Positions 158-60,012 are shown, numbered from the stretch's first letter. The stretch is 64,000 bases of DNA from Acidobacteriota bacterium (GCA_003222945.1 QHXM01000063.1:186-64185), one strand, 5' to 3'. Notes: generated from the letters alone by a model not told the origin. Made by a program: numbers and translations.

Positions 158-314
158 CCGTCGGCCACCTCAGAATTTGTTTGCGCTCAAAGCCTCTTTT
201 CACTATTGTGTGTGCGCCGCGAGAGAACTATCACGGCGGTGATTCGGTGTCAACAATATTCCTTCATATCGGCGCAGGGAATAAGTTTCTATTAGATGTG
301 AAACGGAAATATTT

Positions 315-422
315 CACCACAGAGGCCACAGAGGGCACAGAAGAATGAATAGGGATTTGAAATCTCAAATTTGAAATCTTTCATTCTCTCTTCCTCTGTG
401 TTCCTCTGTGCCCTCTGTGGTT
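315..422. repeat. CACAGAGG-word palindromic intergenic element, copy 1
   Basis: Left arm CCACAGAGGCCACAGAGGGCACAG pairs with right arm CTGTGCCCTCTGTGG/CCTCTGTG. The centre holds the sub-palindrome GATTTGAAATCTCAAATTTGAAATC. A homologous copy lies at 22471-22579, and both are followed by AATTATCG. Confidence 0.7.
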
Positions 423-463
423 AATTATCGTTCATATATCCTTAACTCTAAAAGGAAAATGCT

Positions 464-1503: not shown

Positions 1504-2692
1504 ATGGAGACAGTTTCAGTCGAAAGCGCTCTGCTCGCTAATGAACGTCGCGGGCGATTGCTGCGCGTGCTTGGCGTAGGCTTCGGCCTTGCTGTGACAA
1601 TCGGCGGCGTCATAGGCATGGGCATACTTCGCACGCCCGGCGAAGTTGCTGCGGAATTGCCTCGCACATGGCTCTTCATAGGCGTCTGGCTCGTGGGCGG
1701 GCTTTACGCGCTCTTAGGAACAATCTCCGTCGCAGAGCTTGCGGCTATGATTCCGCGCTCAGGCGGCTTCTCAATGGCATGGAGTCCGCTGGGGCGGTCG
1801 AACGCAGGAGATAACAAGCTCGGTCAAGGCGCTTGCGTTCCTTGCACTCATCGCGGCCTGTTTCATTCTTGGCAACAAGGGCAGCGCGGTCACAAGCAAT
1901 ATTGCTCAATCTGCTTCGACCAACGTTCTCGTCTCGTTTGCGCTCTTTAGTGGAATAATCAAAGCTCTGCAAGGCGTGATCTACACTTACGACGGCTGGT
2001 ACAACCTCATCTACTTCGGCGAAGAGGTGCGCGAGCCTGAGCGCAACATTGCGCGCTCTATGATTGGTAGCGTCATACTGGTCATAGCGATTTACGTTCT
2101 GGTCAATCTAGCGCTGCTCTACGTTCTGCCGCTCTCCGAAATCGCAGGCCAGAAGCTTGCGGTCGGCGCGGCGGCCAATGCAATCTTCGGCGACTACGGC
2201 GGAAAAATCATCGCTGCGCTTGCGACCGTCTCGATGCTGAGCACTGTGAACGCGAACAACCTGATTGCGCCGCGCATACTGTTTGCGATGAGCCGCGACC
2301 GGCTGTTTTCAGAAAGAGCCGTGAAGGTCAATCGAGGCGGCACGCCAACAGTCACTCTGTTTGTTAGCACGCTCGCGGCTGTGCTCTTCATTCTGTTCAG
2401 CCAAAAGCTTGAGAAAGTCTTTGCCGTACTCGCCTTCTTCTTCGTCATCAACTACGGCATCACATTCCTCTCCGTCTTCGTCCTTCGCCGCAGAGAGCCT
2501 GATACCAAGCGCCCCTTTCGCGCGTGGGGCTACCCCTGGACAACCGGCCTGGTCCTCTTAGGCTCAATAGCTTTTTTGATAGGCGCTTTCATGGATGACC
2601 CGCATGACGGCATCTACGTGCTCATACTGCTCGCTGCAAGTTATCCTGCGTTTCTTCTTCTCAGATTGATTCATGGAAAGGCTGAAAAGTAG
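1504..2692 (+). pseudogene. APC-superfamily amino acid permease, interrupted (two ORFs 1504-1950 and 1976-2692)
   Basis: N-terminal frame reads as TM1-TM2 of an APC permease up to AELAAMIPRSGGF (about 1770), then becomes non-membrane junk. A different frame resumes from about 1790 (SSVKALAFLALIAACFIL...IYTYDGWYN...) and carries the remaining TMs to 2692. Roughly two TM segments appear to be missing. Confidence 0.7.
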
Positions 2693-2966: not shown

Positions 2967-4379
2967 ATGAAGACTGAGCTAGTTGATATTTCTCCGACAC
3001 GCAAGGAGATAAAGATTGAGATCGAAGCGGACGCGGTGCGCAAGGCTTACGACCGCATCAGCGACCAGTATGCAAAGCTTGCGACTGTGCCCGGCTTTCG
3101 CAAAGGCCATACGCCGCGCTCCGTAGTTCGCACGCGCTTCAAAGATAAGATTCGCGGCGATGTCTTGCAAGAGCTTGTGCCGCAGGCTGTGCAGGATGCG
3201 ATTGAGAAGCACAGGTTGGAAGCAATCGGCGAGCCTGAGCTTCATCTGGACAACGCGGAGGGTTTGGCAGATAAGCTGGGCACAGAGCCTATCTCTCTAC
3301 ACGTTCACGTTGAGGTTCTGCCCGAAGTTACATTGGGCGAGTACAAGGGATTGGAAGCCGCGCGTCGCGTGCGCCCTGTGATGGACGAGGATGTTGACAG
3401 AGTAATCGAAGACTTGCGCGAAGCGTCCGCAACGCTTGAGCCTGTAGAGGAGCGCGGCGCTGAAGTTGGCGACATCGTGACCGTAAACTTTCATGGTAAG
3501 TTCGTTGAGACGCCGGACGAAGAGGACATAAACATTGACGACGTTGACGTGGAAATTGGTGGTCCGGGCGTGCAGCAGGAGTTCACGGATAATTTGTTAG
3601 GCATGAAGGCTGACGAAGAGAAGACGTTTACGGTTGATTACCCGTCGGATTTCACTTCGAAGGGTTTGGCTGGAAAGAAAGTTGAGTACACGGCGAAGGT
3701 CGTCGCAGTGCGCCGCAAGGAGTTGCCGGAAGTTGATGATGAATGGGCTAAGAGTTTGGGCGAAGAGTTTGAGTCTCTTGCGAACTTGCGCGAGAAGGTG
3801 CGCGAGGATTTAGAGAAGCGCGCCGCTGTGGAATCAGATAATCGTCTTCGCAGCGAGGTGATGCGTAAACTTGTCGAAGCGCATCCGTTTGAAGTGCCTG
3901 ATACTTTACGCGAGCATCAGGCGAATCATCGTCTGGAATCAGCCGTGCGCGATATGATAGGCCGAGGGATTGACCCGCGCGGGCAGGACATAAATTGGGA
4001 AGGCGTGCGCGACTCTCTCAAACAGCAGGCGGACTTCGACGTGCGCGGTTCGCTTCTTCTTGAGAAGATCGCTGATGCGGAAAATATAGAAGTCACGGAT
4101 GAAGAGATTGACGCAGAGATAAACGAGATGGCGGCGAGTTCGCGTCAGACGCCAGAAGCTTTGCGTGCTGCCTTGACAAAGCAGGGAGGCACTACTAGCA
4201 TCGCCGATAGGTTGCGCAATCGCAAAACGCTCGACCTGATTGTTAACAACGCGCGCGTGACGGACCAGGAGTGGCAGGAAGAAACGGAAGAAGAATCGGA
4301 CGCCGCTCAGGAAAACGCCGCAAGCCCGGAACAAGATGAACAACAGAATTCAGAAGTCAGGAATCAGAATTCAGAATGA
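2967..4379 (+). CDS. tig: trigger factor
   Basis: 470 aa. N-terminal ribosome-binding motif GFRKGHTP, a PPIase-like middle, and position directly upstream of clpP-clpX. It has an acidic C-terminal extension whose last 12 codons lie inside the repeat at 4344-4430. Confidence 0.95.
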   Translation: MKTELVDISPTRKEIKIEIEADAVRKAYDRISDQYAKLATVPGFRKGHTPRSVVRTRFKDKIRGDVLQELVPQAVQDAIEKHRLEAIGEPELHLDNAEGLADKLGTEPISLHVHVEVLPEVTLGEYKGLEAARRVRPVMDEDVDRVIEDLREASATLEPVEERGAEVGDIVTVNFHGKFVETPDEEDINIDDVDVEIGGPGVQQEFTDNLLGMKADEEKTFTVDYPSDFTSKGLAGKKVEYTAKVVAVRRKELPEVDDEWAKSLGEEFESLANLREKVREDLEKRAAVESDNRLRSEVMRKLVEAHPFEVPDTLREHQANHRLESAVRDMIGRGIDPRGQDINWEGVRDSLKQQADFDVRGSLLLEKIADAENIEVTDEEIDAEINEMAASSRQTPEALRAALTKQGGTTSIADRLRNRKTLDLIVNNARVTDQEWQEETEEESDAAQENAASPEQDEQQNSEVRNQNSE

Positions 4380-4430
4380 AAAGCCGAAGTCGGTTTCTCT
4401 TTTCTTCTGAATTCTGGATTCTGGATTCTG
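4344..4430. repeat. CAGAAT-word palindromic element (tig-clpP spacer)
   Basis: CAGAATTCAGAAGTCAGGAATCAGAATTCAGAATGA pairs with TTCTGAATTCTGGATTCTGGATTCTG. Small inner hairpin CCGAAGTCGG. Left arm overlaps the tig stop codon. Confidence 0.7.
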
Positions 4431-4449: not shown

Positions 4450-5034
4450 ATGGCTCTAGTCCCGATGGTCGTTGAGCAAACGTCGCGTGGAGAGCGCGCG
4501 TTCGATATCTACTCTCGGCTCCTGAAAGACAATCTAATCTTCATAGGCACTCCCATTGACGACATGATTGCGAATCTGATCGTCGCTCAGCTTCTCTTCC
4601 TTGAAGCTGAAGACCCTGAGAAGGACATCTGGCTCTACATCAACAGTCCCGGCGGCTCAATCACTGCTGGCATGGCAATCTACGACACTATGCAGTTCAT
4701 ACGCCCGGACGTTGCAACCATCTGCGTGGGCCAGTGCGCTTCTATGGCTGCGCTTCTGCTGACTGCGGGTGCGAAGGGCAAACGCTTTGCGCTTCCGAAT
4801 TCGCGCATACTTATTCATCAGCCTTCGGGCGGCTCGCAGGGCCAGGCCACAGACATACGCATTCAGGCCGAAGAGATAATAAGAATGCGCGAGTTGACCT
4901 CACAGATTATCGCAAAGCACACAGGCCAAACTTACGATAATGTTGAGCGCGACGTGGAACGTGATAAGATCATGTCAGCCGTGCAGGCCAAAGAGTACGG
5001 TCTGATTGACGAAGTGATTACACACCGTGAATAA
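4450..5034 (+). CDS. clpP: ATP-dependent Clp protease proteolytic subunit
   Basis: 194 aa with [26 protein letters not shown] (active Ser) and LIHQP (His) motifs. Confidence 0.97.
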
Positions 5035-5092
5035 GTTTCAAGTTCCAGGTTTCAAGTGAACGCTTGTCTTGGAACTTGAAACTTGAAACTTC
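5035..5092. repeat. GTTTCAAG-word hairpin (clpP 3' end)
   Basis: GTTTCAAGTTCCAGGTTTCAAG ... CTTGGAACTTGAAACTTGAAAC starts one nt after the clpP stop. Same word family as 13685-13758. Confidence 0.7.
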
Positions 5093-5151
5093 TTAAAGCC
5101 ATGCGCTTCAGAACCGGAACAGAATCGCCGCTGACGCTTTTAACTCGCAGG

Positions 5152-8093: not shown

Positions 8094-10529
8094 ATGGAAG
8101 AATATTCTGATCACACTCCTTCTGATCTGGCGCGTTACCCGATGGTCCCCATCCGCGATGTCGTCATATTCCCTTTCACTAAAGTCGCTTTCAAGATAGG
8201 ACGGCCCGGCTCCGTGCGCGCGCTCGAAGAAGCGCTCGCGGGCGACCGCACTATCTTTCTAGCCACGCAGCACGACGCGAGCGTGGACGAGCCTTCGCCT
8301 GAGCAGATTTACGGCATCGGCACGCTTGGCCGCATCCTGCAATCGCAGAAGCAGGAGAACGGGCAGATCAAAGTTGTCGTCGAAGGCAGAGAGCGCGCAA
8401 CGACCGTGCGCGTTGATAATGATAACGGAGCTTTCACGGCTCTCATTCGTCGCGCTCCCGTCGTTAGAGAAGAGGGGCAGCGCGTCGAAGCTCTCGTTAA
8501 TAAGATCAATCAACTCGTTGAGCAGCATCTACGCCTTGCGCCTGAAGCGCAGACCGATGCTCTGCAAACTGCTCTGCGCAATCAAGACCCTTCGCATCTG
8601 GCGGACGCTCTGGCCTCGCAGCTACGAATCTCTGTCGAGGACAAGCAGGGGCTTCTGGAAATCTTCTCAACGCAGGCAAGGTTGCAGCGGCTCGTTGAGC
8701 TTCTTGAGATGGAGCTTGATAAGCGGCAGCTTGACCGGACCATTCAGACGCGCGTCAAGCGTCAGATGGAGAAGGCGCAGAAGGAGTATTACTTAAACGA
8801 GCAGATCAAGGCGATTCATAAAGAGTTGGGTCGCAAGGACGAGAAGGCTGAGCTTGAAGAGATAAAGAAAGCTATAGAAGAGGCAGGGATGACGGACGAG
8901 GCCAAGGAGAAGGCCATGCAGGAGCTTCATCGTCTTGAAGCAATGCCGCCCATGTCCGCCGAAGGCACTGTCTCGCGCACCTACATCGATTGGCTCTTGA
9001 GCGTACCGTGGAAACAGAAGTCCAAAGAGATTAAAGACCTGGGGAAAGCCGAAGAGGTTTTGAATGACGACCATTATGGTCTTGAGAAGGTCAAGGAAAG
9101 AATTCTCGAATACTTAGCGGTGCGCCAGCTTGTGAAGAATCCGAAAGGTTCTATCCTTTGTTTCGTTGGTCCGCCGGGAGTTGGAAAGACTTCTCTCGGA
9201 AAATCAATCGCGCGTGCGACGGGCAGAAAATTTGTGCGCCTCTCTCTTGGCGGCGTGCGCGACGAGGCTGAGATTCGCGGGCATCGTCGTACTTATATCG
9301 GCGCGCTTCCAGGCCAGATCATACAGATGATGAAGAAGGCCGGGACTGTAAACCCGCTCATACTGCTCGATGAAGTTGACAAGCTCGGCGCGGATTTTCG
9401 AGGCGACCCGTCATCAGCTTTGCTTGAAGTCTTAGACCCTGAGCAGAACAATACTTTTCAGGACCATTACCTTGACGTTGAATACGATCTCTCGCGCGTC
9501 TTCTTCATAGCGACGGCGAACGTGCTGCACACGATTCCGCCCGCGCTGCAAGACCGTCTTGAGATTATTCGTCTTTCGGGCTACACGGAGCGCGAGAAGC
9601 TGGAGATTGCTAAGCGCCATCTTGTGCCGAAGCAGGCTGAGACCAACGGGTTGAAGGCTGAACAGGTGGAGTTCACTGAAGACGGACTGCTTGAGATTAT
9701 TCGCCACTACACGCGCGAGGCTGGCGTGCGCAGCATGGAGCGAGAGATTGGCTCTTGTATGCGGAAAGTCGCACGGAAATTTGTCTCTGAAGATGCGGGC
9801 GAAGATTTCAAGGATGTCGTCACGGCTGAGCGCGTGCGCGACATGCTCGGACCGGTTAAGTTTCGTCAGCAAGGCATCGCGGCTGAAAGTGAAATCGGTT
9901 TGGCGACCGGACTTGCGTGGACAGAAGTTGGCGGCGAAGTCCTACAGATCGAGGCGACTCTCGTTAAAGGTCGAGGCGGTGTGACGCTCACCGGAAAGCT
10001 CGGTGACGTGATGCAGGAATCAGCGCAGGCTGCTCTGACCTGCATAAAGGCGCGGGCGGAACGCTTGGGCATGAGCCTTGATTTCATTCGCAAGCGCGAC
10101 CTGCACATACACATCCCGGAAGGCGCGATTCCGAAAGATGGTCCGTCGGCTGGAATCACTCTGGCGACTGCGATGGCGTCTTCGCTGACGCGCGTGCCTG
10201 TTCGCAAGAACGTGGCGATGACGGGCGAGATAACCTTGCGCGGGAAAGTGCTGCCCATCGGCGGAGTTAAAGAGAAGTTGATGGCTGCCCACCGTTTCGG
10301 CATCACTACGATAATCTTGCCGAAGGAGAACGAAAAGGATTTGGTCGAAGTGCCTGAAGAGGTGCGAAAGGTGCTGGACATCAATCTGGTAGAGACGATT
10401 GACGAAGTTCTCTCGCTCGCACTTGAAGACGCTTGCCCGACAGACGCGGGTGCGGTAGTCGAGACAAAGACGCCGCCGCTCTGGTCAACGGAACAGCCGT
10501 CGCAGGGCGCTCAGACCATCGCAGAATAG
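8094..10529 (+). CDS. lon: ATP-dependent Lon protease (LonA)
   Basis: 811 aa with LON N-domain, Walker [10 protein letters not shown], and proteolytic KDGPSAG Ser motif with downstream Lys. Confidence 0.97.
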
Positions 10530-10645: not shown

Positions 10646-10690
10646 GCAGCAATCAATCTAATACCGAGTTGCGAACAAAGGAAGAGTTTA

Positions 10691-10749
10691 GAGTTCAATC
10701 TTTAGTTTGTCGCTTATAGCTTAAGAACAACAAGCTAAAGTTTGAACTC
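10691..10749. repeat. inverted repeat GAGTTCAATCTTTAGTTTGT / ACAAGCTAAAGTTTGAACTC
   Basis: 20-nt arms match at 18/20, separated by 19 nt. Confidence 0.5.
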
Positions 10750-10813
10750 GCGCCTCTTGTTTCGCGTAAGCCTCTTGTGATTTACCACAGGCGCTACCCG
10801 CGCCATAACACAG

Positions 10814-12234: not shown

Positions 12235-13680
12235 ATGAGCGGCACGCTTTTTAGAAAAAGGCGAAGCCGCGAGAGAAGAACTGAAATGTCACAAAGAACA
12301 CCACGAACGCGCTCATCAAGCGCATCTAGCGCCGCATCAAATGGCGCAGACGACGGCGTGGCAACGACCACCGCCACAGCAGAAGCGCCGGAAGAAAAGA
12401 GTACGGCGAAAGAGGATAGAAGCGAAGACATCTTCAACCTGTCGGAATTGAAAGAGATGTCCATCTCAAAGCTGACGCAGATTGCAAAGAGTATGGACGT
12501 TCCCGGCGCAACAGGAATGCGCAAACAGGAGCTTGTCTTCAAGATTCTCGCCGCGCAGACGGAAAAGAGCGGCCTTATCTTTTCCGAGGGCGTTTTGGAA
12601 ACCCTGCCCGACGGCTTCGGTTTCCTTCGTGCGCCGGAATACAACTATCTGCCGGGACCGGACGACATCTACGTTAGTCCGTCGCAGATTCGCAAGTTCG
12701 ACCTTCGCACCGGCGACACTGTCTCAGGCCAGATTCGCCCCCCCAAAGAGGGCGAGCGCTATTTCGCTCTCATCAAAGTCGAGGCGATAAATTTCGAAGC
12801 GCCGGACCAGGCGCGCGAGAAAGTCTTCTTCGATAACCTGACGCCGCTATACCCGGACGAGCAGTTGAAGATGGAGACTACGAAAGAGAACCTTTCGGCG
12901 CGCGTCATTGATCTGGTCACGCCGATTGGCAAAGGCCAGCGCGGGCTAATCGTCGCTCCGCCTCGCACGGGCAAAACGATGCTCTTGCAAACAATCGCCA
13001 ACTCCATCACGGAGAATCACCCGGAAGTGACTCTGATCGTCCTGCTCATTGACGAGCGACCTGAAGAGGTCACGGACATGCAGCGCTCGGTCAATGGCGA
13101 AGTCATCTCTTCAACCTTTGACGAGCCGCCTACGCGCCACGTGCAGGTCGCGGACATGGTGATTGAAAAGGCCAAGCGCCTTGTAGAGCATAAGCGCGAC
13201 GTTGTCATACTCCTGGATTCAATCACGCGACTTGCACGCGCACACAACGCGGTCGTTCCGCCTTCGGGCAAGATTCTTTCCGGCGGTATTGACTCAAACG
13301 CACTTCAACGCCCCAAGCGTTTCTTCGGCGCTGCGCGCAATATAGAAGAGGGCGGCTCTTTAACGATCATCGCAACCGCGCTCATAGACACTGGCTCGCG
13401 CATGGACGACGTTATCTTCGAGGAGTTCAAAGGCACAGGCAACTGCGAAATCCATCTCGACCGAAGGTTAAGCGACAAACGCCTCTTCCCCGCGATTGAC
13501 CTGCAACGCTCCGGCACCCGCAAGGAAGAACTGCTCATCAGCAAAGAGGACTTGAACCGCATCTGGGTCATGCGCCGCGTGCTCAATCCGCTCTCGCCCG
13601 TAGAGCAGATGGAAGTCGTTCTTGAGCGCCTTGAAAAATCTAAATCCAACGCAGAATTCCTGGCATCAATGCAGAGCTAA
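12235..13680 (+). CDS. rho: transcription termination factor Rho with about 60-aa N-terminal Arg/Ser/Thr-rich extension
   Basis: Rho N-terminal [19 protein letters not shown]-like RNA-binding part, Walker A PPRTGKT, Q and R loops; 481 aa. Confidence 0.95.
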
Positions 13681-13684: not shown

Positions 13685-13758
13685 GTTTTCAAGTTTCAGG
13701 TTTCAAGTTCCAAGACAAGTGATTAACTTGGAACTTGAAGCTTGGAACTTGAAACTTG
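13685..13758. repeat. GTTTCAAG-word hairpin (rho 3' end)
   Basis: GTTTTCAAGTTTCAGGTTTCAAGTTCCAAG ... CTTGGAACTTGAAGCTTGGAACTTGAAACTTG. Same word family as 5035-5092. Confidence 0.7.
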
Positions 13759-13856
13759 CCAAAGGCGCGCTTCTTCGCATAGTATCAATCTTAACGCTCT
13801 ACTAATTTGTTCTTTCGTGTACGCTCCTCTTCGGTGGGGCGAAGTCGAGAAGAGTT

Positions 13857-15878: not shown

Positions 15879-16283
15879 ATGAAACAATCGCGCAAGAGTC
15901 TCCCCAAGCGCCATAGCTCGCTCGAAGAGCGTCTTAGCCGAGCGCGTCGTTCGCGCGCCGTCGCAGACGCGAAGTTTCGCGCACGGCAAGCGCAAGGTAA
16001 ACTTCGCCGCTTTGTCAGCGCAAACTTTCGCAAGGATGAAGTCATCGCTTCGCTTGCTCTTCGTCGTGGCGAGTGCAACCGTTGCGGCGCGTGCTGCGAG
16101 ATACTCTTCAAGTGCCCCTTCCTAAAGAAGCATAAAGACGGAACGACCACCTGCGGCATCTACGAAGACCGCCCAAACGTCTGCCGTCTCTTTCCCATAG
16201 ACAAGCGCGACCTACAGGAAGTGAACGGAAGCTGTAGCTTCTACTTCATAGAGAAGCCTGTTAAATTGGAGAAAGCAAGTTAA
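15879..16283 (+). CDS. YkgJ-family (UPF0153, CxxCxxCC) Cys-cluster protein
   Basis: GECNRCGACCE motif plus downstream C...C...C cluster; basic N-terminal extension. Confidence 0.7.
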   Translation: MKQSRKSLPKRHSSLEERLSRARRSRAVADAKFRARQAQGKLRRFVSANFRKDEVIASLALRRGECNRCGACCEILFKCPFLKKHKDGTTTCGIYEDRPNVCRLFPIDKRDLQEVNGSCSFYFIEKPVKLEKAS

Positions 16284-16285
16284 AG

Positions 16286-16355
16286 CAGTTTTCAGTTTTC
16301 GGTTTTCAGAAATCAGCGCTTGGGCTGAAAACCGAAAACTGAAAACTGAAAACTG
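16286..16355. repeat. GAAAACT-word hairpin abutting the purA start
   Basis: CAGTTTTCAGTTTTCGGTTTTCAG ... CTGAAAACCGAAAACTGAAAACTGAAAACTG. Begins 3 nt after the upstream stop and ends 4 nt before the purA ATG. Confidence 0.75.
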
Positions 16356-16359
16356 ACTT

Positions 16360-17673
16360 ATGATTATCGTTGTCATCGGTGCGCAGTGGGGAGACGAAGG
16401 CAAGGGGAAGATCGTTGATCTTCTGGCCGAGCGCTTCGATATTGTCGCGCGTTATCAGGGCGGGCATAACGCAGGCCATTCCGTTTACGTCGGAGACCGC
16501 GCGTTCGTGCTGCGTCTGCTGCCATCGGGCATTGTCCACGAAGACAAGATTTGTGTTCTAGGTAACGGGATGGTGATTGACCCGAAGGCTTTTTTTGAAG
16601 AAGCAGATCAACTCGCTGAGCAAGGCGTGCGTGTTACGCCTGAACGTGTGCGCGTGAGTTCTCGCGCGCATCTGATACTTCCTTATCATCGCGCGCTCGA
16701 TCACACGAGCGAAGAGAGACTTGGCAACGAGCGCGTCGGGACAACCTTGCGCGGCATTGGTCCTGCTTACGAAGACAAAGCCGGTCGTCGCGGCATTCGC
16801 GTCGCGGACGCTCTCGTGCCGGATGTTCTTCGCTCTCGCATTGAGCGCAATCTGGAAGACGCCAATCGCATCATCTTAGCTTACAATGGCGAAGCTCTTG
16901 ATGCCGATCAAATCTTCGATGAGATTTCTCGCTTAGCAGAACGCCTCGCACCGTTTATAACGGACACGACCAATTTCATAAATAAGGCGGCGCGCGATGG
17001 CCGCTCGATTTTGATTGAAGGCGCGCAGGCTACTCTCCTTGATGTAGATCACGGCACGTATCCTTTCGTCACTTCTTCGAGCACTACAGCAGGCGGCGCA
17101 TCAATCGGCCTTGGTTTAGCCCCGCAGCGTCTCACGGGCGTGCTCGGTATTGTTCGCACTTACACGACGCGCGTTGGCGAAGGGCCTTTTCCGACGGAGA
17201 TGCTGGAGGGCGAAGAGGAATTGGGGCAGTTGATAAGGGAGCGCGGGCGCGAGTACGGCGCTGTCACACGCCGCCCGCGACGTTGCGGCTGGTTTGACGC
17301 TTTCGCCACTCGCTACGCCGCCGAGATAAACGGATTCTCTTCGGTCGCACTTACGAAACTAGACGTGCTGGATGCGCTTGACGAGATAAAGGTCTGCACG
17401 GGCTATCGTCTCGATGGTCGTGAGATAGACTATTTCCCTGCGGTCTCTCAGGACTTGAGAAGAATCGAACCAATCTACGAGAAGTTTCCCGGCTGGAAGA
17501 GTTCGACCGAAGGCATAACGGAGATGGACGCGCTTCCCGCCGAGGCACGCAGCTACGTCGAGTTTCTATCGAGTGCAATCGGCGTTGAGATCGGCCTCAT
17601 ATCAACAGGGCCTGAGCGCGGGCAGACAATAGTCTGCAAAGACTCCACGCTTGCGCGCTGGCTCGTAGATTAA
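16360..17673 (+). CDS. purA: adenylosuccinate synthetase
   Basis: GAQWGDEGKGK P-loop and GGHNAGH; 437 aa. Confidence 0.97.
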   Translation: MIIVVIGAQWGDEGKGKIVDLLAERFDIVARYQGGHNAGHSVYVGDRAFVLRLLPSGIVHEDKICVLGNGMVIDPKAFFEEADQLAEQGVRVTPERVRVSSRAHLILPYHRALDHTSEERLGNERVGTTLRGIGPAYEDKAGRRGIRVADALVPDVLRSRIERNLEDANRIILAYNGEALDADQIFDEISRLAERLAPFITDTTNFINKAARDGRSILIEGAQATLLDVDHGTYPFVTSSSTTAGGASIGLGLAPQRLTGVLGIVRTYTTRVGEGPFPTEMLEGEEELGQLIRERGREYGAVTRRPRRCGWFDAFATRYAAEINGFSSVALTKLDVLDALDEIKVCTGYRLDGREIDYFPAVSQDLRRIEPIYEKFPGWKSSTEGITEMDALPAEARSYVEFLSSAIGVEIGLISTGPERGQTIVCKDSTLARWLVD

Positions 17674-22470: not shown

Positions 22471-22579
22471 AACCACAGAGGTCACAGAGAGCACAGAGGA
22501 AAGCAATGTCAGATAGAAAATTGAAGCCTCAAATCTGCTATCTCAAATTCTCTACAAATCCTCTGTGTTCCTCTGTGGT
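22471..22579. repeat. CACAGAGG-word palindromic intergenic element, copy 2
   Basis: AACCACAGAGGTCACAGAGAGCACAGAGGA ... TCCTCTGTGTTCCTCTGTGGT followed by AAAATTATCG. Same orientation and layout as 315-422. Confidence 0.7.
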
Positions 22580-24128: not shown

Positions 24129-24192
24129 AGTACCGCCTGCGGTAGCGGGCGGGTTAGGGATACATCACCCGCCCGCTACCGCAGGCGGTACT
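24129..24192. repeat. 25-bp perfect hairpin with self-complementary arms
   Basis: AGTACCGCCTGCGGTAGCGGGCGGG-14 nt-CCCGCCCGCTACCGCAGGCGGTACT. Each arm contains TACCGC..GCGGTA. Lies 45 nt after the upstream stop. Confidence 0.65.
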
Positions 24193-24234: not shown

Positions 24235-24768
24235 ATGAGACAGCATCAAATCATAAAAGCCATCGTGCTGGCTCTCCTTTTCATTGCCACCTTAAATCTT
24301 GGTGCGCAATTTTATCGGGAATATCGCCAAGAGCTAGAGCTACAGAGATTGCAGGAGGAGCATCCCGGAATCACAGTTTGCAGGCTTGGAGGCCCGCCAA
24401 TAGATGTATCCTCACGCCTTTATATTGAATTAGCTTTGGTAGCTGCCTTTATTGGAATTGGGCTAAAGAGATTCCAATCCAAATTATTCTACTTTGTAGG
24501 TTTGATTGGTGTAGCCGTCACTTATTTCTTTTGGTGGAAATATCACTTTCGAATAGCTGAGAATGCCGGAATTAGGATCGGGTGGGGGAATCATATTGCT
24601 TACTTGAACGAAGCTAATTATTGGGACATTTGTATCGCAGTTTCTATTGCCCTGCTATTACTTTGGGAGTTTAGTTGCGCAATACTCTCATTATTCCGTA
24701 CGAATTCCTCAACCACACTCAACTCAAACAGGTCCGACGCCACATCCTCGTCTGAAAAGCAAGGATGA
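24235..24768 (+). CDS. hypothetical membrane protein (177 aa, about 4 TM)
   Basis: Hydrophobic segments and visibly AT-richer codon usage. No family recognised. Confidence 0.55.
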   Translation: MRQHQIIKAIVLALLFIATLNLGAQFYREYRQELELQRLQEEHPGITVCRLGGPPIDVSSRLYIELALVAAFIGIGLKRFQSKLFYFVGLIGVAVTYFFWWKYHFRIAENAGIRIGWGNHIAYLNEANYWDICIAVSIALLLLWEFSCAILSLFRTNSSTTLNSNRSDATSSSEKQG

Positions 24769-24836
24769 AGGATGAAGAAAAGGGGAAAGGGAAAGGATTT
24801 TAACCTTTCCCCTGCTCTCTTTCATCCCTCATCCCT
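24761..24836. repeat. GGATGAAG/GGGAAAGG-word hairpin between convergent genes
   Basis: AAGGATGAAGGATGAAGAAAAGGGGAAAGGGAAAGG ... CCTTTCCCCTGCTCTCTTTCATCCCTCATCCCTT. Overlaps the stop of the 24235 gene and ends 5 nt before the stop of the giant gene. Confidence 0.7.
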
Positions 24837-24841
24837 TTTTC

Positions 24842-27800
24842 TTACTGCCCGAATCTCAGGTCGTACTCAACGGAATTGATGAAGCCGTTGACGAGGATTC
24901 GGTAGTCGTTTGTTTGATTCAGAATTTGAATCCATTGCTGGTAGAGAATGTCTGGATCGCGGCGCAGGTATCCGAAGTATTGCATTACGACGAACGCCTG
25001 ATTGTAGAACTTCTGATAGACCTCTGCGCTCTCAACTATGGCGCGCAATGCTTGACCGCGCGTTAGTTGATTCGATTGTAACTGATTAACTATCTGATCG
25101 CGGTTCGCAGGAGTCACTCCGGCTGCCGCTGAAATCGCATCAACGTAAGCTGCTGCATCAGCAATCTGCCCGTACTTCTGCTGGAATTCACTTCTCGTCA
25201 TGAACTCAGTGATGAAATCCACCTTCGCCTGCTCCTGCTGCTGCGGATCAAGGAAGCCGCTGACCTTCTGCATATCTCGCATGAACTCCAGATAGTGCGG
25301 AATCCTGCCCACAGCAGAGTAGAAGCGATAGATGAAGTAGCCGCGCGTTTGAAACTCCTGCGAGCGATAGAAGGCTGATGATACTTCTATGCGATCGCAC
25401 TTTGTATCATTGGGAGCGCACTTGCTCAGTATATCCTGCCAGCCCTGGAAGCCCGCCGCGTCTGGCTCGCGGTTTAGAAAATCGTGATACTGCTGGCGCA
25501 CGAAGTTCTGTGTGTCCACGATTGCGTTCGCAGCCTTCGGGTCACTGTCGTTGTCCATGACTGTAACCTGCGCCACGCTCTGCGCTCCCAGAGTTGCGCC
25601 CACAGGATTACTTAAGGTGAGCGTTAAGGTTTCATCGCCCTCGACGTATGAGTCTTCGTTCACGAGCAAGGTCAAGCTCTTTGCGGTTTCGCCCGGAGCG
25701 AAATGCAGAGTGCCAAGCAGCAATGTGTAGTCTGTTCGCTGACTGGCTGTGCCGTCGGAGGTCGCGTAGTCAACGAATGCGTCCTTAGAAGTGTCGCCCG
25801 TGCGCGTGACGTTGATCAGTTTGAAGTGGCTGCCCTCTGAGACGCTGTAGCTAGGTTGCTCTAGCTGCACGGTTGATGGCTGCGGGTCATTGTCTATGAT
25901 GGTCAGTACAGCCGTTTTGGTCGAGCCGAGTTGCGCGCCACCCATCGGATTGCTCAGTATGAGATTAACAGTCTCGTCAGGTTCGTTCGTCTGGTCATCC
26001 GTAATCGTCACGGTGAAGGTTTTGTCGGACGTGTCACCATCGGCCCAGTTGAGTGTGCCGTTGGTCAAAGTGTAATCAGAGCCTACGGTCGCCGTGCCGC
26101 CTGCGGCTGTAGCGTATTGGATGGAGACTGCTCCGAAGCTGCCGTTTGTCCGCTTAACAGTGATTGTAGCCTGTCCGCCGCTCTCATTGATGCTGTAAGC
26201 GGATGTGCTGAAAGCTATTGTTCCTGCCGGAGCCGCGTCGTCATTTTGAATCGTGCATGTGCCTTGAGACTTGGCGATTGCGGCATTCGTGGGGTTCGAG
26301 AGATTGACGAAGAAAGTTTCGTCCGGCTCGAACTGCGTGTCGCCGACGACGTTTACTGTGATGCTCTGCGAGGTCTGTCCGGGGTTGAAAGTAAGCGCGC
26401 CCGTTTTGAAAATATAATCGCTCTGCGAAGTCGCCGTGCCGTTGGCTGTCGCGTAGCTGACCGTGACGGGCAGAGAATAAACAGACGAGAGCGTTACCGT
26501 GAAGGTCGCCCTCTTCTGGCCGCTGTTGCCTTCCGTAACCTGTATGTCGTTGATGGAAAGCGAGGGCGTCGTCGCGCCCAAAGGCATAGAGAAAGAGAAC
26601 TCGGAGGTATCACCTGTCGTCAGGTTCGTCGCCGTTGCAGAGACAAAGCGCCCGGACGGGACGAGTGGCAATTGCGCGCTGAAGTTGGCTATGCCCTTAG
26701 CGTCAGTAGTCACGCTAAGAGAGCCTAAGTAAGTCTCGCCTTCACCGTAGCCCAAAGCATTAGGCTGTGCGTTGCTGAAGAACTCAAGGCTAAACTGCGT
26801 GCCTGGCGTGCTGTCCAGAAAACCTTGCGATGTAGTGCTGTTACCGCTTGTCGTGACCGACGTGATCACAGGATAGTTCTGCTGATTGTTCGCGCCGGTG
26901 TCGCCATCGCCTTGATCGTTTAGAGTCACACCAGTTGTCCCCAAGTCTATGCCTAAGCCTTTGTTGGAAGTGATTGAATTAGAACTAATAGAGTTGCCCG
27001 TACCATTGTAGATATAGACTCCGGAGTGACCGTTAAAAGCGATGGAATTACCCGCTTGGCCGCCGATCACATTTTTGCTTGCCCCAATCTCCACCTCCAC
27101 GCCGTCTTTGGCATTTCCCAAAGCGGTAATATTGTCGCTCGCATAGCCAATCTTATTTCCCATAACCAGATTGCCGGTCCCGACGGCAATATGGACGCCT
27201 GCGCTGGAGTTGGCCGAAATGTAGTTGCCAGCGCCCGCGCTCGTTCCCCCGACGACATTATTCGAGCCGCTTAACAGAACACCATCGCCTCCGTTAGGAA
27301 GAGCGGCCATGCCCGTAATATCAGTGCCGATGTAATTGCCGGAAATGATAACGCCGGAACTTTGTGAGCCTACGTTAATGCCTGAACCTTTATTGCCGGA
27401 GATGATATTACGTTCGGCAGGAGTCGTGCCGCCGATTTTTGCGACGTTCGGGAGTGTGGCAGTGATTTGAATTCCGTCAGAGTTGGCGAGCGCCACTTTC
27501 CCCGTGACATCAGTGCCGATCAGGTTTCCCTGCACCATTACTCCTGAAACGCTGCCGTCGAGCCAGATGCCAGTGCTGTTGCCGGAGATCAGGTTTCCTG
27601 CGCCCGGCGCACTTCCGCCGATTAGATTATTGGATAAGGACGGACTTACGCCTCCCATATATATTCCATAGGCGTTGTTTGCAAGCGCCACCGTGCCGCT
27701 AGAGTCCGTGCCGATAAAGTTTCCCTGAATCACATTGTCAGTTGCGCCTGCATAGGTCATGTAGATGGAGAAGCTTGCGTCGCCAGAGATTATGTTTCGT

Positions 27801-29087: not shown

Positions 29088-29154
29088 CAATGTGAAAAGA
29101 TTTTTGAAGGTGAAAAATGGGGGCGATAAGTGATTGGGCAGGACGTAGTGTGGA

Positions 29155-29222
29155 AGTCCAAAGTCCAAGGTCCAAAGTCAAACGGCTCTTGCCTTGAGAC
29201 ATTGGACATTCGACATTGGACT
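29155..29222. repeat. AGTCCAA-word imperfect hairpin at the 3' end of the response-regulator gene
   Basis: AGTCCAAAGTCCAAGGTCCAAAGTC ... GACATTGGACATTCGACATTGGACT. The right end touches the stop codon at 29222. Confidence 0.55.
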
Positions 29223-29908
29223 TAATTAACTAATCTATCGCGCAGGGCTTTCGCTACGGCTTCGCTCTTTGAATGGACCTGAAGCTTGTCGTAGATGTTG
29301 CGCATGTGGAATTTGATTGTGTTGATGCTCACACCCAACTCTTCGGCGGACGTTGTGTAGTTGTGCCCGTCAACCAGAAGTTTCAGCAGGCGCGTTTCGT
29401 GCGGCGTGAGTTCGTAATCGGCGCGCTCAGGGGGTCGTATGTCACGAAAGAGAGTGATGACGCGGGAGGCTACTTCTGGAGACATAGGAGCGCCGCCCGT
29501 CACAGCCTCTTTAAGACACTCAAGAAGCCGTGCGGGACTTGTTCTCTTCAATAAATAGCCGCACGCTCCGGCGCAAAGGGCGTCGAATATGCGGTCGTCG
29601 TCGTCATAGACCGTCAATATCAGGATGAGCATTTCCGGGTATCGCTCTTTCAGTATTTTGATGCCCTGGATACCGTCCATTCCGGGCAAGCCTATGTCTG
29701 ACAGAACAACGTCCGGCATCTCGCGGCTTATCTGCGCCAATGCCTCTTCCATAGAGCGATAGCTGCCCGTGCAGTGATAGCCTTCCGTTCCGTTTATAAG
29801 CATCGCCAGACCTTCGCGTATGTCGCGCTGGTCCTCTACGATTGCAGTTTTGATGAGCGATTTAGTGTCCATTCCGATTATTGCGTTGCCGGTTTGCATT
29901 AACTTCAT
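29222..29908 (-). CDS. NarL/FixJ-family response regulator (receiver + LuxR-type HTH)
   Basis: Receiver with VEDQ...VVLSDIGLPGMDG. C-terminal LTPHETRLLKLLVDGHNYTTSAEELGVSINTIKFHMRNIYDKL is a LuxR HTH. Confidence 0.9.
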   Translation of the reverse strand: MKLMQTGNAIIGMDTKSLIKTAIVEDQRDIREGLAMLINGTEGYHCTGSYRSMEEALAQISREMPDVVLSDIGLPGMDGIQGIKILKERYPEMLILILTVYDDDDRIFDALCAGACGYLLKRTSPARLLECLKEAVTGGAPMSPEVASRVITLFRDIRPPERADYELTPHETRLLKLLVDGHNYTTSAEELGVSINTIKFHMRNIYDKLQVHSKSEAVAKALRDRLVN

Positions 29909-33570: not shown

Positions 33571-33575
33571 TTCTC

Positions 33576-34035: not shown

Positions 34036-34113
34036 CGAATGCGGAATGCGGATTGAAAAGCAAATGCTTCCGTCTTCTTAAATCCACAATCCGAAATCCG
34101 CATTCCGAAATCG
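34036..34113. repeat. GAATGCGG-word hairpin at the 3' end of puuD
   Basis: CGAATGCGGAATGCGGATTGAAAAG ... AATCCACAATCCGAAATCCGCATTCCGAAATCG. A degenerate half-copy lies at about 42421-42475. Confidence 0.65.
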
Positions 34114-34929: not shown

Positions 34930-34933
34930 CCAA

Positions 34934-39131: not shown

Positions 39132-39242
39132 AAAAGGCAGAATACAGAATTCAGGAGTCAGGAGTCAGAATAAAAGAGAAACAGAATGGCTCTCGGCCTT
39201 ATCATTCTGGATTCTGAATTCTGGCTTCTGAATTCTGCTTTT
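39132..39242. repeat. CAGAAT-type palindromic element inside the xdh operon
   Basis: AAAAGGCAGAATACAGAATTCAGGAGTCAGGAGTCAGAATAAAAGAG...GGCCTTATCATTCTGGATTCTGAATTCTGGCTTCTGAATTCTGCTTTT. Starts at the base next to the FAD-subunit ATG and contains the last 13 codons plus the stop of the 2Fe-2S subunit. Confidence 0.8.
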
Positions 39243-42228: not shown

Positions 42229-42502
42229 AAAAAATTTACTCCAGCTTGTTTAGTAATAGAGCACCGGCTTTCTTGAACGATACTTTACAACGTCTTCGGC
42301 TCACTCACCAAAACTTCCCGCGCTCAAGCGCAAGCAATCCGACTGATTTTCTTGTTGCTCCATTTTTTAGCGCGACAATTTATCTCAATCTGGCGCTCAC
42401 AGTCGAACGCGGATAGAATGCCTCTCGATTGCGGAATGCGGAGTGAAAAACAGAACGTTGTCATCGTTAATCCGAAATTGAAAGGCGCGGCCAATTACAC
42501 TC

Positions 42503-44640: not shown

Positions 44641-44753
44641 AAAAGCAGAATTCAGGAGTCAGAATCCAGAATTCAGAATAAAAGAAAAACAAAGAACGGC
44701 TCTGCGGCCTTATCATTCTGAATTCTGACTCCTGAATTCTGTATTCTGCTTTT
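44641..44753. repeat. CAGAAT-type palindromic element (glpK-glpD spacer)
   Basis: AAAAGCAGAATTCAGGAGTCAGAATCCAGAATTCAGAATAAAAG...GGCCTTATCATTCTGAATTCTGACTCCTGAATTCTGTATTCTGCTTTT. Its last T is the first base of the complement of the glpK stop codon. Confidence 0.85.
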
Positions 44754-47912: not shown

Positions 47913-47976
47913 GGCCAGTGGTTAGAGGTCAGTTTATGGTTTTTACTAACCCTTGTCCTCCAGCCTTTAACCTTTG
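47913..47976. repeat. GGTTAGAGG-word imperfect inverted repeat
   Basis: GTGGTTAGAGGTCAG ... AACCCTTGTCCTCCAGCCTTTAACCTTTG. Weak pairing. Word shared with 15804-15875. Confidence 0.3.
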
Positions 47977-55592: not shown

Positions 55593-55915
55593 GGTCCGAT
55601 AATCTATAAAGGCGCTTCCGGCGAATACCGGCCTTGCCTGACACTTCTATAAATCACAAATAGGCGCGAATTCCCAAAGTAGTCTCTTAAATCTGAGGTT
55701 GAAAACCGCTCTTTGATTGAATGTAGTTGAGCGAGATTCACACGCTCCCGTCGATCTTCTTGTCAGCAGAAAAGTCTAATTAAACGCAAAGAGACGATAG
55801 CGCCCGCCCATCCGGGATGTCAATAAAATTGTTGGATAGATTTCGGATCGAGTTTTCATCGTTTCTTAATTCTTAATTTTTAATTCTCAACTCTTTTGTG
55901 TACGATGCTCAAGTC

Positions 55916-58103: not shown

Positions 58104-58244
58104 AAAAGCAGAATACAGAATCCAGGAGTCAGAATAAATAAAGTAGTTTTCAGTTTTCAGAAGGCTCGTAACTCAAAACTGAAAACTGAAAACTCAAAAC
58201 TGGCTTCAGCCTTATCCCCTTCTGACTCCTGAATTCTGCTTTTT
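58104..58244. repeat. composite palindromic element (CAGAAT outer + GAAAACT inner), reverse-oriented twin of 33431-33570
   Basis: AAAAGCAGAATACAGAATCCAGGAGTCAGAATAAATAAAGTAG[TTTTCAGTTTTCAGAAGGCTCGTAACTCAAAACTGAAAACTGAAAACTCAAAACTG]GCTTCAGCCTTATCCCCTTCTGACTCCTGAATTCTGCTTTT. The last T belongs to the htrA-like stop codon. Confidence 0.85.
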
Positions 58245-59290
58245 CAAACAACTTCTTGCGGAACGATGTTAAGAGTCAAGCGCTCTGTGCGGCGTATGAC
58301 TGCGAGAGGCGAGCGTTGGCCTACGCGCTCGTCCGTCAGAAGCTTATGCAGTTCGTCAATGCCTGCTACGGGTTGACCGGCAAAGCCTATGATTATGTCT
58401 CCTTCCTGCAAGCCGCTTGCGCGCGCAGGGCTGTTATCGTCAATGTTGACTACGAGTATCCCGTTCTCGACTTCCAAATTGTAATAGCGCACGATTCTTC
58501 TGGGCAGCGGAACGTTCTGGCCCGCTACGCCTATGTAGCTGCGGCGTATGCGCCCGTCCTTTATCAAACGACCTGCGACGAACTTCGCAGTGTTGATTGC
58601 GATTGCAAAGCATATCCCTTGCGCTGGCAGGATGACGGCTGTGTTGACGCCAATGACTTCGCCGCGCGAGGTCACAAGTGGTCCGCCGGAGTTTCCCGGA
58701 TTGAGCGCAGCGTCAGTCTGAATTATGTCGTCAATCAAGCGGCCAGAGTTTGCCCTGAGCGAGCGTCCCAGGGCACTGACGACGCCAGCCGTCACGGTGC
58801 ATTGAAAGCCGTAAGGGTTGCCGATTGCTATGACGACCTGGCCTGTGCGTATGCTCTGCGAATCGCCCAGACGCACGGGCACAAGGTCGCCAGCATTTAT
58901 TCGTATCACTGCTAGGTCCGTATGCGGGTCATCGCCGACTATCTGCGCCCCGTAGCTACGACCGTCTGCGAGCGTGACTTCCACGCCAACGGCGTTGTGA
59001 ACGACGTGGCTGTTGGTCAATATGAATCCGTCCGGCGTGAAGACGAAGCCTGAGCCGCTCCCGCCTCTTTCCTGTCGGCGTCGCGGATTCGTTCGCGCAC
59101 GGCTCTCTCTGCGAAGTTTGACCTCTATGTTGACAACCGAAGGGCTGACGCGCTCAGCCGCGCCGACTACTGCGCGAGAGTAAGCGTCGAGCAGGTCATC
59201 GTCACGGGCGCTGAATACGCCCTCGCCTATGCGCGCACCTTCCGGCTCGCTGCTGGTGTCGTCTGATGTTTGTAAAACTCGCTGCATCAT
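58244..59290 (-). CDS. HtrA/DegP-like S1C serine protease with one PDZ domain, no obvious signal peptide
   Basis: TNSHVV (His), D, and GNSGGPL (Ser) triad context. C-terminal PDZ (GLQEGDIIIGFAG). Strong purine-rich RBS before ATGATG. Confidence 0.85.
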   Translation of the reverse strand: MMQRVLQTSDDTSSEPEGARIGEGVFSARDDDLLDAYSRAVVGAAERVSPSVVNIEVKLRRESRARTNPRRRQERGGSGSGFVFTPDGFILTNSHVVHNAVGVEVTLADGRSYGAQIVGDDPHTDLAVIRINAGDLVPVRLGDSQSIRTGQVVIAIGNPYGFQCTVTAGVVSALGRSLRANSGRLIDDIIQTDAALNPGNSGGPLVTSRGEVIGVNTAVILPAQGICFAIAINTAKFVAGRLIKDGRIRRSYIGVAGQNVPLPRRIVRYYNLEVENGILVVNIDDNSPARASGLQEGDIIIGFAGQPVAGIDELHKLLTDERVGQRSPLAVIRRTERLTLNIVPQEVV

Positions 59291-59782: not shown

Positions 59783-59830
59783 AAATGCTTTTTGTCAAGC
59801 GATAATGCGAGATTAGCGTTAACCTTAATA

Positions 59831-59886
59831 AGCCCCGTAGGGGCGACAGAATCTCCAAATCACAATTCTGTCGCCCCTACGGGGCT
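59831..59886. repeat. 22-bp perfect hairpin with self-complementary arms
   Basis: AGCCCCGTAGGGGCGACAGAAT-12 nt-ATTCTGTCGCCCCTACGGGGCT. Each arm contains GCCCC-GTA-GGGGC. A second hairpin, CCCGGGGC-TGAC-GCCCCGGG, lies at 59910-59929. Confidence 0.65.
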
Positions 59887-60012
59887 TGACCCTTATTATG
59901 GAATCTAAACCCGGGGCTGACGCCCCGGGCTATATTCTTCCGCCCTCTATCGGGGCTGTTCTGATGTGCTAGCAACTGTTCACTGGCTCTATTTCATCTC
60001 CGCCAATCCCAT

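Follow-up and report, generated by a model that had tools for sequence, protein, structure and literature searches.

Foldback hairpins with tandem heptamer arms in the intergenic spacers of an acidobacterial chromosome

The locus and its elements

The window, that is the whole 64-kb stretch of DNA that was analysed, is ordinary chromosome of a Pyrinomonadaceae-like acidobacterium. Its Rho (12235-13680) is 90-92% identical to the Rho of Pyrinomonadaceae MAGs, which are its best relatives. The gene content comprises tig-clpP-clpX-lon-rho-glgA-trx-purA, transporters, a purine-catabolism cluster and glycosyltransferases. No transposase, RAYT included, was found among the genes of these 64 kb.

The focal hairpin lies in the rho-glgA spacer and starts 5 nt after the rho stop codon (13678-13680). 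Its arms (13687-13714 and 13727-13754, or up to 13758) enclose a loop at 13715-13726. The 5' arm reads AAGTTTTC AAGTTTC AGGTTTC AAGTTCC AAG and is followed by the 12-nt loop, while the 3' arm reads CTTGGAA CTTGAAG CTTGGAA CTTGAAA CTTG. Both arms were assigned a period of 7 by Tandem Repeats Finder, and the repeat finder gave arms of 28 nt with a complementarity of 89%. As RNA, the plus strand has an MFE of -42.3 kcal/mol (z = -8.9) and none of 200 shuffles was as stable (0/200), so that the stable structure proposed for this site in a first-pass annotation of the sequence is borne out. The minus strand reaches -30.0 kcal/mol as RNA, which makes the hairpin 12 kcal/mol stabler on the sense than on the antisense strand, and the value for single-stranded DNA is -23.5. 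The stem contains 3 G-U pairs and 0 A-C mismatches. It is AU-rich, extends over 28-33 bp and is followed by GCCAAAGG, and it thus differs from the canonical GC-rich stem with a U-tract. The hairpin is separated from the next start by 99 nt and its 3' end overlaps the -35 of a putative glgA promoter, a site that is the downstream border of a variable hairpin slot. The other elements of the window are listed in Table 1.

Table 1. Hairpins, arrays and associated sites in the window.
Position	Strand	Element	Remarks
309..428	.	Period-9 CCACAGAGG composite with inner ATTTGAAATC hairpin	
4344..4430	.	CAGAAT-family copy, units CAGAATT, CAGAAGT, CAGGAAT	Trigger-factor ORF runs through 5' arm
5030..5094	.	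Second GTTTCAA-family copy	Starts on clpP stop codon; 265 nt to next start
10682..10758	.	Non-periodic long hairpin, GTTTAGAGTTCAA family	Same family after rho in L083, L087
11288..11362	.	Weak period-7 (ACTCAGT) hairpin	Occupies DUF4760-GTPase spacer
13685..13758	.	Focal foldback hairpin, GTTTCAA family, period 7	Repeat finding and folding
13756..13785	+	glgA upstream promoter-like site TTGCCA-N18-TAGTAT	Kept as TTGACA...TAGTAT in L003, L004, L007
15804..15875	.	GGTTAGA/GAGGTYA-family hairpin	Next start codon 4 nt downstream
16281..16360	.	CAGTTTT-family hairpin	From upstream gene's stop codon to purA ATG
22471..22579	.	Second CCACAGAGG composite, inverted relative to 309-428	Ends compared by eye
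24129..24192	.	Non-periodic perfect 26-bp GC-rich hairpin	
24753..24844	.	AAGGATG/GGGAAAG hairpin	Convergent spacer
29154..29223	.	AAGTCCA-family hairpin	Adjoins response-regulator stop codon; same word class in L087
33432..33572	.	The ~140-nt composite of 58104..58246 in inverted orientation (outer arms CAGAAT, inner hairpin CAGTTTT)	
34037..34112	.	GAATGCG-family hairpin	Adjoins urate-oxidase stop codon
35288..35345	.	Partial/degenerate CAGAAT-family copy	Single arm and loop region
39133..39242	.	CAGAAT-family copy	Between Fe-S and FAD subunit genes of a xanthine-dehydrogenase-type enzyme
42421..42475	.	GAATGCG-family half-copy	Divergent spacer
44641..44753	.	CAGAAT-family copy	Occupies FGGY-family kinase / FAD-dependent dehydrogenase spacer
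47913..47976	.	Weaker GGTTAGA-family hairpin	-19 kcal/mol
55863..55895	.	Direct-only heptamer array TTCTTAA x 4.7, without inverted partner	Just upstream of signal-peptidase gene start
58104..58246	.	Composite: outer CAGAAT arms around CAGTTTT hairpin (58140-58205) and small GGCTTCAGCC hairpin	
59830..59887	.	Non-periodic perfect 23-bp hairpin	

Heptamer arms and their pairing

At the focal site and in about 15 further spacers, inverted arms made of 3-6 tandem 7-nt units build stems of 20-40 bp. The window contains 16 period-7 arrays, compared with a mean of 0.05 and a maximum of 1 in 20 dinucleotide shuffles, and it contains no array with a period of 4-6, 8, 11 or 12; most arrays were assigned a period of 7 or 14 by TRF. 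These counts agree with the first-pass annotation, which had described the arms as tandem word arrays of several families sharing one architecture, and every site that it listed is present, either exactly or a few bases off. Some details changed. The word length, given as 7-8 nt, is 7, since the quoted 8-nt words are a heptamer plus one base, and the CACAGAGG family has a period of 9. The copy at 33436-33572 is a full composite and more than an inner copy.

The arms had also been proposed to pair in several registers. After a shift of the register by 7 nt, most periodic hairpins still reach 65-98% of their best stem score and the weak copy at 11294 reaches 38-62%, whereas the non-periodic hairpins at 24129 and 59830 drop to about 10%. 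Since the shift keeps the score in the periodic hairpins but not in the non-periodic ones, the label 'register-slippable' is correct. Moreover, the two arms are mirror images of each other down to the unit variants. Among 36 periodic hairpins, taken from the window and from related loci, 101 double deviations were compensated, with about 10 expected under independence, while 12 were uncompensated and 139 were single-sided, a count that includes some non-periodic clamp bases at stem ends. For instance, the hairpin upstream of purA has arms of 24 nt with 100% complementarity, in which the variant unit CGGTTTT pairs with AAAACCG.

Hairpins had been placed at most gene ends of the window. Of its spacers of at least 35 nt, 16 of 38 have a period-7 signal and about 21 have a long hairpin by our own count, so that the statement is roughly right only when the non-periodic hairpins are counted as well; gene models were ORF-based and the context classes are crude. 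For about two thirds of the stems checked, the distance from a stop codon to the start of the stem is at most 5 nt, and in some the stop codon is part of the stem. The stem ends 0-20 nt before the next start at 16281, 39133, 44641, 15804, 11288 and 47913. Copies are also found within likely operons, namely between the genes for the Fe-S and FAD subunits of the xanthine-dehydrogenase-type enzyme, between those for the FGGY sugar kinase and the FAD dehydrogenase, and between clpP and clpX. No Rfam family covers the hairpins.

Dispersal of the elements as units

Several families recur within the window: CAGAAT was found at at least six sites, CAGTTTT at three and GTTTCAA at two. The CAGAAT copies have common ends (AAAAGCAGAAT...ATTCTGCTTTT), share the loop segment AAAAGAGAAAC...GGCTC..GGCCTTATC and are flanked by AAAAGC...GCTTTT; in the copy at 4344..4430 the loop consists of a small GC hairpin and then a T-rich run. 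A composite of about 140 nt, which includes a small GC hairpin, is present twice as inverted copies (58104-58246 and 33432-33572). The second GTTTCAA copy, at 5030, is inverted as well, since its loop resembles by eye the reverse complement of the focal loop (13715-13726). In addition, the ORF of the Fe-S subunit (39202-39717, minus strand) extends into the arm of the element at 39133..39242. This protein and trigger factor, which are unrelated, end with the same 11-residue C-terminal tail QNSE(V/A)R(N/I)QN(S/P)E, encoded by the CAGAAT arm together with the stop codon.

The same pattern was observed at a larger scale. A total of 96 array sites, collected from 2.3 Mb of acidobacterial loci, represent 75 word classes and form 31 same-class pairs, with about 4 expected in a calculation that treats related words as independent. 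The CAGTTTT, CTTTGTG, GTTTCAA and AAGTCCA words recur at non-orthologous sites across genomes, and the unit order CAGTTTT-CGGTTTT-CAG with its AAGCAG flank is identical after rho in the relative L003 and before purA in the window. Long hairpins without periodicity are also dispersed, as is the case for CCATCCACAGATTAC, found at several sites in L001, L082 and L084. In three families, some copies are oriented with transcription and others against it, a result that relies partly on loops compared by eye and that fits either a symmetric stem or an absence of function.

No consistent target-site duplication was found in 16 elements inspected with a slack of 4 nt: in 12 of them, any direct repeat at the ends is at most 3 nt long, and the other four have matches of 4-6 nt that are inconsistent between copies. 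The elements do have the terminal inverted repeats, small size and multiple copies that are typical of MITEs. An autonomous partner was not found in one 40-kb stretch of a Nostoc plasmid. Since the window has no transposase and target-site duplications are absent, the support for a copying mechanism comes from the copy pattern by itself. Taken together, these observations show that the elements are copied as whole units and did not evolve locally.

The first-pass annotation had overlooked the dispersed-copy nature of the hairpins.

Stability among strains and turnover between species

In three contigs that were retrieved with ClpP and are 99.3-99.9% identical to the window, six hairpins have zero substitutions or indels, which indicates that the arrays are not hypervariable; the change of copy number among close strains that defines phase-variable repeats was not seen in these six hairpins and three contigs. 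The next relatives are at 80-86% nucleotide identity (Rho protein 83-92%; best pair 85.5%). No relative of intermediate divergence was found in a metagenome scan with Rho, which peaked at 92% amino-acid identity.

At this larger distance, the slot between rho and glgA is bounded by the conserved rho stop codon and by the conserved promoter TTGMCA-N17/18-TAGTAT, and it holds GTTTCAA in the window, CAGTTTT in L003, GTGACAG in L004 and CCGTGAR in L007. Elsewhere the rho 3' slot contains a long non-periodic hairpin or a classical GC-stem/T-run terminator, the latter in L006, L011, L012, L081 and L088, and almost no relative has it empty. In the same way, the in-operon spacer between the DUF4760 and GTPase genes shows five families in five genomes. 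Families other than that of the window are present in L003, L007, L008 and L009, as a nested pair in L009, while nothing is found in L002 and the spacer is only 30 nt long in L005. The elements are thus stable among strains, while a given slot is occupied by different families between species. Some loci of Vicinamibacterales and Terriglobia also have period-7 arrays, which are often direct-only.

Terminator and strand tests

The hairpins had been suggested to replace classical terminators in the window, and this was supported in part. Classical stem-plus-T-run patterns occur at chance level (19 versus 23.2, 22 versus 22.8 and 27 versus 22.4 over positions 1-60000) and are located mostly within genes, and the rho slot does hold a hairpin. 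Nevertheless, T-runs are not enriched after the stems and some copies lie inside operons. The mean number of T in the 8 nt after the stem is 2.55, at least 5 T are present in only 6 of 67 hairpins, and there is no bias of T-runs to the sense side of these 67 hairpins, where the T count is no higher than the mirror-image A count.

Several arms had been thought to need G-U pairs and therefore to be strand-specific as RNA. This is the case for the focal hairpin, and 14 of 19 window hairpins are stabler on the sense strand, but it does not extend to the collection as a whole: in 68 gene-end hairpins with duplicates removed, no G-U strand bias was detected (76 sense versus 64 antisense wobbles, p = 0.35). 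These results are compatible with a symmetric stem acting in RNA, without demonstrating an RNA role.

The asymmetry between G-U and A-C was also considered as a proof of selection at the RNA level and was rejected, the counts being 98 versus 68 with the three near-identical strain contigs and 76 versus 64 without them.

Matches in other phyla

The CAGAAT family has counterparts outside Acidobacteriota. In Geobacter metallireducens, class 3 sites comprise eight opposite-strand pairs of five tandem heptanucleotides with the consensus MTYCTGA, for example at proB/proA, and class 2 sites are pairs of TCTCCGTS[Y] x 3 (PMC2700814). Aklujkar et al. 2009 regarded these as putative binding sites of a global regulator, with IHF/HU as an untested guess (PMC2700814). 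When the CAGAAT arms were compared with the class 3 sequences printed in the supplement, identical strings of 20-31 nt were found, and the 31-nt string CTGAATTCTGACTCCTGAATTCTGTATTCTG is common to Gmet_I304A and to positions 44718-44748 of the window. Only the CAGAAT family corresponds to the class 3 paired sites; the focal GTTTCAA word is different.

In parallel, the element at 44641 retrieved 26 records from PLSDB, all of them Nostocales. In each of the six loci inspected, the match is part of an inverted array built from the same unit variants; five of these arrays enclose 60-120 nt, and more inverted heptamer pairs are present in the 40-kb Nostoc plasmid stretch. Since unit variants are few, an identical unit order is weak evidence of recent transfer. 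The robust point at the sequence level is the degenerate word TCAGRAK (units TCAGRAK / MTYCTGA), which is common to the three phyla.

Other searches were less productive. The GTTTCAA and AAGTCCA families had zero matches in plasmids and phages, the period-9 family had only borderline Bacteroides matches there, and nothing was found for the composite in phages. AAAACTG matched Enterobacter-type plasmids, probably through unrelated arrays, and a literature search with CAGAAT strings returned primers only.

A CTGA/TCAG core is present in 19 of the 75 acidobacterial word classes compared with 3.5 expected (p ~1e-9 before correction for 136 tetramers), the classes being not fully independent of each other. 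CTGA is also the core of the Beggiatoaceae word TAACTGA (PMC4679880), and TCAG that of TTGTCAG in Nostoc PCC 7120 (PMC2408588).

Relation to known repeat systems

The design was taken to be undescribed in the first-pass annotation, and this does not hold, given the STRR hairpins of filamentous cyanobacteria (PMC2670836) and the paired heptanucleotide sites of Geobacter metallireducens (PMC2700814). Intergenic hairpins made of 7-bp STRR are 'not unusual' in filamentous cyanobacteria, where a role in transcript stability or translational coupling was suggested (PMC2670836). The likeness lies in the 7-nt tandem unit, in words that recur at many intergenic sites and in a frequent hairpin arrangement. 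Furthermore, the CAGAAT arms match only Nostocales in PLSDB, as inverted pairs with the variants CAGAATT, CAGGAGT and CAGAAGC, and both systems lack a demonstrated function. By contrast, the host is here an acidobacterium and not a heterocyst-forming cyanobacterium, and the STRR1-3 words (CCCCAGT, TTGGTCA, CAACAGT) do not occur in tandem in the window. The loops are also mostly of 4-35 nt in compact stems that adjoin stop codons, whereas the inspected Nostoc copies enclose 60-120 nt. Helix P12 of RNase P RNA is reportedly extended by STRR, and the STRR of close relatives are said to be unrelated to each other, which parallels the slot turnover among relatives of the window.

The Geobacter metallireducens sites of classes 2 and 3 are likewise paired tandem repeats of 7-9 nt on opposite strands, intergenic and in some cases within an operon (proB-proA). 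The CAGAAT units of the window correspond, as reverse complement, to the class 3 motif MTYCTGA x 5. However, eight pairs are found in that whole genome compared with at least six copies in 64 kb here, and the other word families of the window are unreported there.

REP elements act as stabilisers of mRNA 3' ends. REP/BIME and REPIN sequences are, like the elements described here, short palindromic repeats of extragenic regions, found at the 3' ends of genes or between cistrons, and REP and REPIN also lack target-site duplications. REPINs are inverted doublets that form long hairpins and are copied as units (PMC3116915). On the contrary, REP arms are short imperfect palindromes with a GTAG end and not tandem heptamers, and the window families have no common end motif such as REP arms possess. 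REPINs are moreover tied to a RAYT transposase gene, of which there is none among the genes of the window.

The heptanucleotides of Mrazek et al. 2007, the Xanthomonas GGGAATC repeats and the Beggiatoaceae TAACTGA repeats share with the window a heptamer excess that is intergenic and sporadic across phyla. Some GGGAATC arrays are inverted pairs (PMC4692102), and TAACTGA, which contains the CTGA core, is one base away from the AAACTGA unit of the window (PMC4679880). These arrays are nevertheless mainly direct, each genome has a single dominant word, and the arrays are often located upstream of start codons, whereas many words coexist in the window and the inverted, stem-forming layout is dominant. 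Finally, foldback elements and MITEs (Correia; the eukaryotic Foldback with its tandem-repeat inverted ends) resemble the elements by their inverted arms, small size, many copies, nesting and cargo, but those of the window have neither target-site duplication nor known autonomous partner.

Possible origin and role

On balance, and with moderate confidence, we regard the elements as foldback repeats akin to STRR that are copied as units, would be transcribed together with the upstream gene and would act as REP-like 3' stem barriers. They form a population of dispersed palindromic foldback repeats of 60-140 bp with 3-6 tandem heptamers per arm and a short loop, which in some families carries cargo, either a small GC hairpin plus a T-rich run or a nested second element. 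Co-transcription with the upstream gene would yield a long mRNA stem, and this stem may be a 3' barrier that protects or punctuates transcripts, as do REP/BIME or as proposed for STRR. At true gene ends such as that of rho, the element would substitute for the terminator hairpin; inside operons, it may be tolerated or modulate expression. The 7-nt periodicity could come from slipped-strand amplification, heptamers probably being, in many bacteria, the long repeats that slip most readily, and an origin by slippage has been proposed for heptanucleotide repeats generally (cited in PMC4679880, PMC4692102). No copy-number change that would indicate ongoing slippage was seen among the strains. The complementarity of the arms may be kept by foldback selection or by templated inter-arm repair, and arms as repetitive as these would let the stem tolerate that one arm gains or loses a unit.

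Some of the same observations fit foldback elements of MITE or REPIN type that are purely selfish or neutral and have no host role, and that would persist wherever their insertion is harmless, that is, a few bases after stop codons in a compact genome. The copy pattern, the nested composites, the two orientations, the protein tails encoded by arms, the presence or absence at in-operon spacers and the lack of both strand and T-run bias all suit such elements, as does the occurrence of the CAGAAT family on conjugative Nostocales plasmids and in Geobacter. We nonetheless consider this rather unlikely, given that target-site duplications are absent, that no transposase lies in the 64 kb and that the three strains show no presence/absence difference, and also because almost all relatives have the rho slot filled, an indication that a hairpin is required at this place. 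In another view, the structures are terminators evolved in place, long AU-rich stems without U-tract, some of them bidirectional, that replace the classical type, repetitive arms being an easy route to a long stem. Their location directly after stop codons, the chance level of classical terminator patterns and the AAAAGC...GCTTTT flanks of the CAGAAT copies would agree with this, and so would the rho 3' slot, which has nearly always a hairpin and in some relatives a classical terminator. It is an unlikely account of the whole set, however, because T-runs are not enriched (at least 5 T in 6 of 67), copies lie within likely operons with the next start 0-20 nt off, families are dispersed with common loops and nested composites, half-copies and direct-only arrays occur in divergent spacers, and the DUF4760-GTPase spacer is empty in L005.

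A function at the DNA level was also considered, the arms being binding arrays for a nucleoid or regulatory protein (IHF/HU as a guess), arranged as paired operator-like sites and not as RNA stems. The conservation of TCAGRAK across three phyla and the excess of the CTGA/TCAG core (19 of 75 word classes versus 3.5 expected) point in this direction, and a global regulator was proposed by the Geobacter authors (PMC2700814). More than 10 unrelated words in 64 kb are nevertheless too many for one sequence-specific protein, the base-by-base mirroring of the arms, variants included, is expected of a stem and not of independent binding sites, and the positions are gene 3' ends and not promoters, all of which makes this quite improbable. 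Still more remote, and hardly credible to us, is an intercistronic RNA device that would bring stop and start together for translational coupling or be cleaved by RNase III so as to separate cistrons. Stems of 25-40 bp, as are present here, suffice as RNase III substrates. At 16281, 39133, 44641, 15804, 11288 and 47913 the element fills the interval from the stop codon to 0-20 nt before the start, and translational coupling was suggested for STRR (PMC2670836). On the other hand, many copies are distant from a start, as at 13685 (99 nt) and 5030 (265 nt), the copy at 24753 is situated in a convergent spacer, nothing in the sequences was found to be peculiar to coupling, and strand bias is absent.

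Beyond the favoured reading of STRR-like repeats with a 3' barrier role, a bolder and doubtful possibility is that heptamer-armed foldbacks are cross-phylum mobile DNA, shared by Acidobacteriota, Geobacter and Nostocales. A machinery recognising CTGA-heptamer arrays would insert them beside stop codons without target duplication, and hosts without classical terminators would have come to depend on their stem-loops.

Conclusions

Heptamer repeats of the STRR type have been known since 1990, and to our knowledge neither an origin nor a function has been generally accepted for them. A literature search for Acidobacteria and heptanucleotide together found no paper, and what appears to be new here is the occurrence and density of such elements in Acidobacteriota; their unit-wise dispersal and mutual replacement in fixed slots, and the presence of one family across three phyla, are apparently new as well. 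For annotation, it means that models based on a stem plus a U-tract miss gene ends in this lineage and that ORFs may gain short tails from repeat arms. The same architecture occupies about half of the intergenic spacers of one acidobacterial chromosome. This spacer density, together with the slot replacement and the unit variants common to three phyla, speaks for a shared mechanism, one that can be searched for, and against a peculiarity of a single lineage.

Heptamer words and arrays

The tetramer CTGA/TCAG was found in 19 of the 75 classes of heptamer array words from the window and the acidobacterial comparison loci L001-L160, against 3.5 expected, and the same core is present in repeats of Geobacter (MTYCTGA), Beggiatoaceae (TAACTGA) and Nostoc (TTGTCAG). 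Two arrays are direct-only, one of which (TTCTTAA) ends 3 nt upstream of a signal-peptidase start codon, a placement that resembles that of the Beggiatoaceae TAACTGA arrays. When compared with PLSDB, the AAAACTG array at 16325-16356, an arm of a CAGTTTT-family hairpin, matched 27 plasmids of Enterobacter, Citrobacter and Salmonella (about 108-134 kb among the matches listed) with 97% identity over 32 nt and in several places per record; these matches are probably unrelated heptamer arrays. In the relative L009, a TTAATGA heptamer hairpin was observed nested in a long GC-rich palindrome (GTCAGAACCGGAGCGGTAGCGACCGGGT..., 8733-8866) that has the core GCGGTAGCG in common with the non-periodic perfect hairpin of the window at 24129-24192.

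Features located in the window
Feature	Position	Strand	Remark
Purine-catabolism gene cluster	34114-41710	-	
TTCTTAA x 4.7, direct-only heptamer array	55863-55895		without inverted partner
CTGCCTT x 4.4, direct-only heptamer array	61873-61903		without inverted partner
Acido-Lenti-1 RNA, RF01687	59910-59957	+	Rfam match, 44.4 bits (gathering score 37)

Repeats in and around genes

The purine-catabolism cluster is broken up by three repeat elements and comprises the large, Fe-S and FAD subunits of a xanthine-dehydrogenase-type enzyme along with an amidohydrolase, an allantoicase, an OHCU decarboxylase and a protein with a urate-oxidase N-terminal domain. A C-terminal tail of 11 residues, QNSE(V/A)R(N/I)QN(S/P)E, is common to its Fe-S subunit (39202-39237) and to trigger factor (4344-4379), and in both genes a CAGAAT repeat arm encodes the tail and supplies the stop codon.

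The Acido-Lenti-1 RNA match lies in a spacer of 729 nt, 23 nt downstream of the perfect hairpin 59830-59887. The window and the relatives L003, L004 and L007, four genomes in all, share a conserved promoter-like site upstream of glgA, whose start codon seems to be TTG, and a conserved 5' leader (13786-13856) that contains a small GC hairpin (CGCTCCTCTTCGGTGGGGCG).

Apparently split genes and gene orientation

An amino-acid permease of 459 aa is encoded by one gene in L161, a contig of a 99.9%-identical strain, and by two ORFs in the window (1504-1950 and 1976-2692). The split results from the absence of about 185 nt at ~1767-1772 of the window (L161 2071-2257) together with a 1-nt indel; the gene is a pseudogene unless the assembly is in error. 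A sensor kinase with Reg_prop repeats, Y_Y_Y, HisKA_3 and HATPase_c domains (29966-33336, minus strand) appears split into three overlapping ORFs in different frames and may be frameshifted.

Finally, gene orientation switches from plus to minus at ~24.8 kb and cumulative GC skew reaches its maximum at 28-30 kb, the pattern between ~24800 and 30000 being that expected at a replication terminus.
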